Of a stretch of 64,000 nt of DNA, positions 20,420-20,774 are shown in pieces; position 1 is the stretch's first letter; each line of letters starts with the position of its first letter. The stretch is from Escherichia coli (GTDB lineage: Bacteria > Pseudomonadota > Gammaproteobacteria > Enterobacterales > Enterobacteriaceae). A program made the translations under genes and the position numbers. Below the pieces are notes generated by a model, which ran no database searches, had not been told where the DNA came from, and saw nothing but the letters and a program-made list of their open reading frames with translations. The stretch lies in NCBI RefSeq assembly GCF_002854065.1, contig NZ_CP024147.1. One strand, 5' to 3'.

Positions 20420-20774
20420 ACTCTCTCCTTATAACCAATTGTTCTTGTTTTGTTAACATTGATAACAATTCGCTCAGTCTGTCGGAGAGACAAGAAAATG
20501 CCAAATATAAATTTTGTGTATCTTTTTCTGAAAATAAACTAAAGAAAGGGCTTTATATATCACGCATATTTATTTATTGGATAGTCATTAGATGTTGAAT
20601 CAATGAATTACTCGTTCAGGTAATATTTAAATATTCATGAAATCTATAAATTAAAGATTTGTCACTTATTGGATTTAGTATGCTTGATTTAAATGGCGGA
20701 CAATTATTGTTATTATTAAGTCTAATGTCATTTAAAGGCATTATCATATTTACGAAGAGATCAGGATGATAACG
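20420..20774. promoter_or_regulatory. AT-rich divergent control region: ssuEADCB promoter on minus strand, elf fimbrial operon promoter on plus strand
   Basis: 355-bp non-coding stretch, visibly AT-rich with A/T tracts, between divergently oriented ssuE and elfA. Confidence 0.5.

Follow-up and report, generated by a model that had tools for sequence, protein, structure and literature searches.

An AT-rich fimbrial island end, probably fused to ancestral ssuE DNA, in the ssuE-elfA spacer of Escherichia coli

How did ssuEADCB, an operon for sulfonate scavenging, come to stand back to back with a cryptic fimbrial operon across a short and extremely AT-rich stretch of DNA in Escherichia coli, and what might this mean for the ssu promoter? 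The locus lies in a window of 64 kb (the whole stretch of DNA that was analysed), and an earlier note had described the DNA between the two operons as markedly AT-rich with long A/T runs, as an H-NS-silenced fimbrial promoter region carrying the sulfate-starvation ssu promoter on the other strand, and as one short divergent region in which two unrelated regulatory programmes meet.

Location, base composition and H-NS occupancy of the spacer

By megablast the locus was matched in 5,413 of 5,426 complete E. coli genomes, annotated as ssuE and elfA, and the full ssuE-elfA spacer was present in 4001 of the 5426 (full-length matches at at least 90% identity). Exactly as first noted, the spacer between ssuE on the minus strand and elfA on the plus strand is 355 bp in length (20420-20774). 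It serves as the control region for two divergent operons, ssuEADCB on the minus strand and elfADCG-ycbUVF on the plus strand. The flanking genes, and an insertion sequence within the fimbrial operon, are as follows.

19844..20419, minus strand: ssuE, NADPH-dependent FMN reductase, first gene of ssuEADCB (191-aa ORF and RefSeq annotation of matching loci; start codon at 20419)
20775..21314, plus strand: elfA (ycbQ), major fimbrial subunit gene (RefSeq-type start; AGGA 8 nt upstream of the ATG at 20775)
22588..23918, plus strand: IS2 copy of 1331 bp, inserted in the usher gene elfC with duplication of a 5-bp target, CCATC (by comparison with RM9872, which has an intact elfC, and from the IS2 transposase ORFs)

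A second ATG in frame with elfA, at 20766, overlaps the AGGA of its Shine-Dalgarno sequence and is unlikely to be the start. Compared with K-12 MG1655 (NC_000913.3, 997513-997867), the spacer was identical at 351 of 355 positions (98.9%), the four substitutions falling at window positions 20447, 20473, 20500 and 20620. The K-12 ssuE-elfA (ycbP-ycbQ) region is thus the same locus, with the same 355 bp length and the same flanking genes, and its EMSA primer sites, candidate SlyA site and SELEX promoter hexamers are all present here too. However, the usher gene of K-12 is intact, whereas the present strain has IS2 inside elfC, and no contiguous IS2-elfC junction was found in complete RefSeq E. 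coli genomes. As IS2 splits elfC, the elfA promoter of this strain would drive an operon which is unable to assemble fimbriae.

The spacer has a GC content of 27.9% (AT 72.1%), versus 51.2% for the whole 64-kb window. Among all 355-bp segments of the 64 kb (mean GC 51.2%, sd 4.7%) it lies approximately 5 sd below the mean, and just 0.064% of segments are as low or lower. The minimum of the 64 kb (26.8%) starts at 20429, and the sole other similar AT trough lies at approximately 9839-10462. There are 12 A/T-only runs of at least 6 nt in the spacer, the longest being 15 nt (20621-20635), and three of the six runs of at least 13 nt in the whole window fall inside it; TpA frequency is 0.110 in the spacer vs 0.043 in the window. 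The AT-richness of the spacer is therefore real and far beyond chance, and both the marked AT content and the long A/T runs described earlier are borne out, the spacer forming the deepest AT trough of the 64 kb. The spacer also contains a near match to an H-NS motif:

20643..20652, plus strand: TCTATAAATT, matching 9 of 10 positions of the high-affinity H-NS motif TCGATAAATT (consensus reportedly from Lang et al. 2007)

Matches to this motif with at most one mismatch occur at 2.8 per kb in the spacer vs 0.08 per kb in the window.

In K-12 the ssuE(-)/elfA(+) spacer is one of 78 “promoter islands” (996773_328, U00096.2 coordinates); H-NS was found on it in all three ChIP-chip studies (Grainger, Kahramanoglou and Oshima), and the genes of the island were predicted to be foreign by two predictors (Panyukov & Ozoline 2013, PMC3661553). 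Promoter islands as defined by Panyukov and Ozoline are AT-rich, covered by H-NS, transcriptionally weak and associated with foreign genes, and the K-12 homologue belongs to this class. It should be noted that the criterion for membership is the density of start points predicted by PlatProm, whereas our simple hexamer promoter scan, which differs from PlatProm, shows no enrichment in the spacer (4 sites vs 2.7 ± 1.2 in shuffles).

ChIP-seq of MG1655 gave H-NS IP/input values, which are per-gene means, of 22.96 for elfA and 15.75 for elfD (both bound), 2.41 for elfC, 1.13 for ssuA and 3.04 for ssuE, the last without a bound flag by the criteria of that study; in CFT073, which lacks elf, the ssuE value was 0.86, not bound (PMC9765446 Data set S1). 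Moderate per-gene values are hard to interpret, because pyrD reaches 4.1 in MG1655 and 6.4 in CFT073 and is unflagged in either (PMC9765446). Curran et al. 2017 (PMC5797941) call elf a cryptic operon under H-NS repression, for which they cite Korea et al. 2010, and tabulate both the ssu and elf operons as H-NS regulon members on the basis of three data sets. The ChIP comparison at the K-12 homologue therefore came out positive, by ChIP-chip in all studies and by ChIP-seq over elfA and elfD, and the description of an H-NS-silenced fimbrial promoter region is upheld for that homologue, which is H-NS-occupied and whose elf operon is H-NS-repressed. From the 98.9% identity, H-NS occupancy and silencing are predicted for the present strain as well.

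It could be argued that this AT-richness is no more than the generic composition of intergenic and promoter DNA, and that it plays no particular part in silencing by H-NS. Spacers generally have a higher AT content than genes, promoter-like sites are not above the shuffled expectation given above, and the 68 bp of ancestral type next to ssuE (described below) have themselves just 36.8% GC. However, the GC content of the 64 kb reaches its minimum here, 5 sd below the mean of all 355-bp segments, the orthologous ancestral spacer has a GC content of 36.7-48.9% in 50 Enterobacterales loci, and four independent data sets show H-NS on the K-12 homologue (PMC3661553, PMC9765446). We consider a purely generic composition to be very unlikely, and a foreign, H-NS-silenced origin of the AT-rich DNA is taken up in the next section.

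Junctions with ancestral DNA in elf-lacking genomes

Approximately a quarter of E. coli genomes matched just the ssuE-proximal part of the query. These elf-lacking E. coli have nothing of the elf/ycbUVF cluster, and their ssuE and pyrD are immediate divergent neighbours with 236 bp between them; such an ancestral-type spacer was found in 1353 of 5426 complete E. coli genomes (counted at at least 80% coverage). In pairwise alignment, homology between the window and elf-lacking E. coli stops at 20487 and restarts at 28911, so that the island separates the PurR box of pyrD from the predicted core promoter of ssuE. Between these junctions elf-lacking strains have 69 bp, vs approximately 8.4 kb here, of which 1,331 bp are IS2.

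20488..28910, plus strand: elf island, comprising the AT-rich regulatory region and elfADCG-ycbUVF, including IS2 (junctions mapped against empty-site E. coli)
20420..20487, minus strand: ancestral-type ssuE-proximal segment, 68 bp, GC 36.8% (Shine-Dalgarno, leader and predicted core promoter)
20488..20774, no strand assigned: AT-rich regulatory left end of the elf island, 287 bp, GC 25.8% (no counterpart in elf-lacking E. coli or outgroups; H-NS and SlyA target by K-12 data)
28911..28922, plus strand: right junction, where ancestral DNA restarts at GAAAACGTTTGC (by alignment; block conserved in outgroups)

The sequence GAAAACGTTTGC lies 10 bp after the ycbF stop codon and is presumably the PurR box upstream of pyrD, matching the consensus for such boxes. 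At the other end, 65 of the 68 positions of 20420-20487 are identical to the ssuE-pyrD spacer of elf-lacking E. coli. The junction coincides with a step in GC content within the spacer, from 36.8% (20420-20487) to 25.8% (20488-20774), and when five E. coli lineages were aligned 46 of 287 columns were variable on the island side vs 3 of 68 in the ancestral segment.

We surveyed outgroups by scanning one genome per species with SsuE, followed by tblastn of the neighbouring proteins, which gave 63 Enterobacterales loci. In 50 of these pyrD and ssuE are immediate neighbours in divergent orientation, separated by 225-295 bp with a GC content of 36.7-48.9% (median 42.5%). The genera with this arrangement include Citrobacter, Leclercia, Enterobacter, Lelliottia, Kosakonia, Klebsiella, Kluyvera, Cedecea, Buttiauxella, Pluralibacter, Siccibacter, Pantoea, Erwinia and Serratia. 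Two divergent species representatives labelled as E. coli (L010 and L029) also have the pyrD-ssuE arrangement and no elf. Alignment of 16 ancestral spacers revealed conserved blocks which, read toward ssuE, are TTATGC..TTTT..GC, GATAAATCATTTMG, CTCTGnCAC-ACT, AATTGTTATCAATGTTA and GTTATAAGGAG, followed by the ATG. Elf-lacking E. coli carries all of these blocks and the window retains only those from CAGACTG onward. The blocks TTATGC..TTTT..GC and GATAAATCATTTMG, both of which are conserved across genera, lie in the 69-bp segment of elf-lacking E. coli and are missing from the window, and no copy of the ancestral block GATAAATCATTTAG was found in the spacer at up to 3 mismatches.

The DNA between junctions 20487/20488 and 28910/28911 is thus missing from 1353 of 5426 E. 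coli and from 50 of 63 Enterobacterales loci, as expected of DNA of horizontal origin. We consider it very probable that the spacer is a chimera which arose by horizontal gene transfer, in which an H-NS-silenced island end was fused to ancestral ssuE DNA. The ancestral state of the Enterobacterales would have been ssuE directly divergent from pyrD across approximately 225-295 bp of about 42% GC. The lineage from which most E. coli descend would then have acquired a fimbrial cassette of approximately 7.1 kb without IS2, with its own 287-bp regulatory region and seven genes, at the cost of 69 bp of this spacer. Of the ancestral DNA, 68 bp would be left next to ssuE (Shine-Dalgarno, leader and predicted core promoter), and pyrD would have kept its promoter and PurR box.

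The opposite polarity, in which E. coli had the AT-rich spacer from the outset and elf-lacking strains have suffered a deletion of the island, so that the 287 bp were never imported, must be weighed here. Gonzalez-Alba 2019 read the distribution of ycb as a loss in the G/B2 lineage, and our reading of the elf-negative state as ancestral differs from that wording. It is also the case that there are no mobility genes, tRNA or flanking direct repeats at the island, and no target-site duplication or repeat was found at the island ends. However, the 69 bp of elf-lacking E. coli have blocks which are kept in Citrobacter, Klebsiella, Enterobacter, Kosakonia, Cedecea, Buttiauxella and others and are missing in elf-positive strains. 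Because a deletion cannot regenerate a segment with cross-genus blocks, the elf-negative state should be ancestral and 20488-28910 an insertion or replacement. The elf-free arrangement of the 50 outgroup loci and of the two divergent E. coli-labelled representatives also stands against a deletion, which we regard as improbable. The insertion polarity agrees with the phylogroup distribution in Wurpel 2013, where Ycb fimbriae were present in phylogroups A, B1, D and E and not in B2.

The nature of the replacement is less clear-cut. Local alignment of the ancestral 69 bp to the island end was marginal (p 0.03-0.05), and a colinear, ungapped comparison with 20488-20556 gave 29 identities out of 69 (p about 0.01). 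What we have called a replacement might therefore instead be a very diverged homologous segment that was imported with the island.

The ancestral pyrD-ssuE spacer of Enterobacterales and of B2 E. coli such as CFT073 has the same ssuE-proximal 68 bp, PurR box and pyrD promoter as the chimeric locus. It differs in its length (225-295 bp), its GC content (37-49%), its possession of the TTATGC..TTTT..GC and GATAAATCATTTMG blocks and, in CFT073, its ssuE H-NS value of 0.86. Among the surveyed outgroups only Pseudocitrobacter has an elf-like cluster at the ssuE locus. This is a divergent fimbrial operon upstream of ssuE with an AT-rich spacer of 474 bp (GC 0.29-0.32), but its proteins are 55-69% identical, its spacer is not alignable, its junction is farther from ssuE and it has kept the ancestral upstream block.

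Promoters and candidate regulator sites on the two sides of the junction

On the ssuE side, the block AATTGTTATCAATGTTA stands at a fixed spacing from the ssuE start codon in 16 aligned Enterobacteriaceae spacers. We predict the following features from this block and from spacing.

20459..20467, minus strand: predicted extended -10 of the ssuE promoter, TGTTATCAA (from the conserved block and TTGATA at 20459)
20482..20487, minus strand: predicted -35 hexamer CTCCGA, 17 bp upstream of the predicted -10, at the island junction
20703..20731, minus strand: promoter-like site facing ssuE, ATGACA with a 17-bp spacer and AATAAT (10/12 consensus match; scan and RpoD SELEX)

The conserved TGnTATCAA, 39 nt ahead of the ssuE start codon, is paired with a poor -35 and was missed by the consensus scan; the poor -35 is what would be expected of an activator-dependent promoter. 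On the sequence, the island junction appears to abut this predicted -35. The promoter-like site at 20703..20731 sits approximately 285 bp upstream of ssuE and is not the Cbl-dependent promoter.

Van der Ploeg et al. 1999 reportedly found that ssu is fully expressed only when Cbl has its site upstream of the -35, and that CysB and IHF bind the region as well, at three sites each; the ssu promoter biochemistry was reportedly done in K-12. In that strain the promoter presumably has its upstream sites for Cbl, CysB and IHF inside 20488-20774, and the functional Cbl site would lie in island DNA if the predicted core promoter at 20459-20487 is correct. A search for a Cbl motif common to the K-12 tauA promoter and the ssu upstream region gave nothing significant, either for the island type (p 0.27) or for the ancestral type (p 0.47). 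That the Cbl-dependent ssu promoter lies in this spacer, upstream of ssuE, is established for K-12 (van der Ploeg et al. 1999, as cited in other papers), which agrees with the earlier placement of a sulfate-starvation promoter on the strand opposite to elfA.

The features of the elfA side are:

20688..20716, plus strand: predicted elfA promoter, TTTAAA with a 17-bp spacer and a TG-extended TATTAT (promoter scan)
20598..20610, plus strand: AATCAATGAATTA, a perfect match to the IHF consensus WATCAANNNNTTR (consensus match only)
20761..20772, plus strand: TCAGGATGATAA, candidate SlyA site of Curran et al. 2017 (PMC5797941, Table 3; sequence present)

The predicted elfA promoter block is conserved in the five aligned E. 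coli lineages. SELEX with RpoD holoenzyme gave a signal in the spacer, with ATGACA-17-AATAAT toward ssuE and TTTAAA-17-TATTAT toward elfA (Shimada et al. 2014, PMC3946193), and our own promoter scan recovered both hexamer pairs (minus strand 20731-20703; plus strand 20688-20716). There are four IHF consensus matches in the 64-kb window, one of them inside the spacer.

As many chaperone-usher operons are phase-variable, the spacer could conceivably be a fimbrial phase switch, with an invertible promoter of the fimS type or Dam/Lrp GATC sites of the pap type. The repeat search found two inverted pairs, both weak, and not a single direct repeat; one of the pairs (10 nt, 90% complementary, arms 20413-20422 and 20677-20686) might be taken for the arms of an invertible element. 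However, one of these arms overlaps the ssuE start codon, and pairs so short are expected by chance. There is a single GATC in the spacer (20759), vs 4.8 per kb in the window, and no recombinase gene is adjacent. The orientation is the same in all five aligned lineages, and there is no inverted allele among the 4001 full-length matches of at least 90% identity. A pap-like or fim-like switch, to which we give practically no weight, was rejected.

A hidden small gene or regulatory RNA would account for both the length of the spacer and its conservation, which is good among elf-positive E. coli, and there is indeed an ORF of 43 codons on the minus strand (20616-20747). However, this ORF is asparagine-rich and of low complexity, as expected of AT-rich DNA, and has no convincing ribosome-binding site. 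When 20300-20900 was scanned no Rfam family was found in the spacer at E ≤ 1, the sole hit being a miRNA model (E 0.95) inside ssuE, and no terminator-like site was found in the spacer, the single match of that scan also lying inside ssuE. We think a gene or RNA of this kind extremely unlikely.

SlyA provides a further link between the two sides. In K-12, SlyA binds the exact 355-bp fragment in EMSA, and its overproduction raised expression of ssuEADCB 3.6-fold and of elfADCG-ycbUVF 2.7-fold (Curran et al. 2017, PMC5797941). The EMSA primers of that study, TC49 and TC50, match the window exactly at 20420-20441 and 20755-20774, and the TTAN6TAA-like candidate TCAGGATGATAA is also present; the binding itself is known for K-12 DNA only. 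Because both have H-NS and SlyA input, the ssu and elf programmes are not fully independent. The claim that two unrelated programmes share one short divergent region can thus be retained in part. Both promoters are here and the region is divergent and only 355 bp in length, but the programmes are not fully unrelated, and the shared region is not a homogeneous promoter, being made up of 68 bp of ancestral and 287 bp of island DNA.

The cryptic chaperone-usher operons yad, yeh and sfm of K-12 are likewise AT-rich upstream, H-NS-repressed, induced by SlyA overproduction and cryptic in the laboratory, and they and hlyE-type systems are examples of H-NS silencing antagonised by SlyA/LeuO or SlyA. 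Unlike in yad, yeh and sfm, the silenced region of elf is back to back with a housekeeping promoter for nutrient scavenging, that of ssu, which is left with approximately 68 bp of ancestral upstream DNA.

A proposed mechanism and its consequences for ssu

In the mechanism that we propose, H-NS would nucleate on the AT-rich island end and form a patch over the spacer, elfA and elfD; both the nucleation and the spreading are what we infer, from the identity to K-12 and from sequence features of the island end such as the H-NS motif match (20643-20652) and the IHF consensus match (20598-20610). This patch would silence the predicted elfA promoter (20688-20716), which would leave the fimbriae cryptic, and its edge would extend as far as the promoter and 5' end of ssuE. 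SlyA, acting on the same fragment, would relieve the silencing of both operons. Independently of this, under sulfate starvation, the LysR-type activator Cbl would bind upstream of the -35 and switch on the ssuE promoter; in elf-positive strains the position of its site would fall in island DNA. The difference in ssuE H-NS values between MG1655 (3.04) and CFT073 (0.86) fits an island-borne patch which overlaps the ssu promoter, bearing in mind that these are per-gene means and that ssuE is unflagged. The presence of ssu in the K-12 H-NS and SlyA regulon lists may be explained by the spacer being the junction of an ancestral promoter and an island.

The two lost conserved blocks would lie near -55 and -82 from the predicted ssuE start, which are typical positions for LysR-type regulators. 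It is thus possible, and we put this forward tentatively and as somewhat less than an even chance, that the arrival of the elf island cost the ssu promoter its ancestral upstream half, namely 69 bp with two blocks conserved from Serratia to Citrobacter.

The status of the K-12 homologue as an H-NS target, a SlyA target and a promoter island is already known and is ordinary. What is new here is only the anatomy of the junction and its predicted regulatory consequence, and the regulatory part is what we infer. If it is true, the Cbl, CysB and IHF sites would lie in xenogeneic, AT-rich DNA in approximately 74% of E. coli, K-12 included, and ssu would be coupled to H-NS and SlyA in elf-positive strains, while approximately 25% of E. 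coli (B2-type) would retain an H-NS-free ancestral ssu promoter. This predicts that elf-negative (B2) strains have no coupling of ssu to H-NS and SlyA, with which the ssuE values above are consistent. Studies of the ssu promoter in K-12 may then not be transferable to the quarter of E. coli which have the ancestral spacer. The two alleles would regulate sulfonate scavenging differently, and the locus would be a natural example of an island that has rewired the promoter next to it.

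Right junction of the elf island and IS2 within it

Two features of the elf island, the fimbrial cluster lying between ssuE and pyrD:

28911-28922, right junction of the island, directly at GAAAACGTTTGC, 10 bp past the ycbF stop codon
22588-23918, IS2 (1,331 bp) with a 5-bp target duplication (CCATC), splitting the fimbrial usher gene elfC

We read GAAAACGTTTGC at 28911-28922 as the pyrD PurR box, and the control region of this gene was left undamaged by insertion of the island. No obvious terminator brought by the insertion was found between ycbF and pyrD. In published per-gene H-NS data, pyrD (equivalent to 29011-30021 in the window) had moderately raised IP/input values of 4.11 in MG1655 and 6.42 in CFT073, and was flagged as bound in neither strain (PMC9765446 Data set S1). 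This raised signal could be an artefact of high expression or could reflect weak binding at the ancestral spacer, in which pyrD is directly divergent from ssuE. As for IS2, a contiguous IS2-elfC junction was absent from all complete RefSeq E. coli genomes, and the insertion in elfC is therefore strain-specific. Its source might be Shigella or some lineage rich in IS elements.

Variation at the ssuE-elfA spacer among E. coli strains

The island-side allele of the spacer was diverged in E. coli 1532WA (L005 1621-1974), with a query identity of about 90% overall; the differences were concentrated at positions equivalent to 20536-20560 and 20672-20685 of the window. The 68 bp proximal to ssuE were almost unaltered. 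E. coli O145 RM9872 was 100% identical to the window over the 601-bp query around the spacer and only about 98% identical across the wider region. The ssuD ORF is intact in the window (17750-18895, 381 aa); a truncated ssuD, annotated as a pseudogene, was seen in RM9872 (L001 3466-4596). In E. coli 23AR1101 (L008 3067-3922) the 5' end of ssuE, the entire spacer and elfA have been lost by an IS1-associated deletion.

AT-rich and possibly ssu-like sequences elsewhere

Only one further deep AT trough occurs in the window, at approximately 9839-10462; its GC content falls to a minimum of 29.6% over 355 bp, and it corresponds to K-12 986,932-987,555, the asnS-ompF spacer upstream of ompF. The sequence TTTTTTTGCTAAGAATAAAATCAT upstream of K-12 tauA (L089, between about -105 and -80 relative to the ATG) was similar to the ancestral ssu block TTTTCTTCCTCAGATAAATCAT, a likeness which was not statistically significant (p 0.47) but may point to a common Cbl or CysB site.

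An elf-like chaperone-usher cluster was found in Pseudocitrobacter (L023 3530-4000; L027) at the same ssuE-upstream locus as elf in E. coli, with protein identities of 55% for ElfA, 66% for ElfD and 69% for ElfC. Its junction differs from that of E. coli elf, and its AT-rich spacer is 474 bp long with a GC content of 0.29-0.32. This cluster suggests either that the same intergenic site has been used repeatedly or that this cluster and that of E. coli go back to one old insertion.
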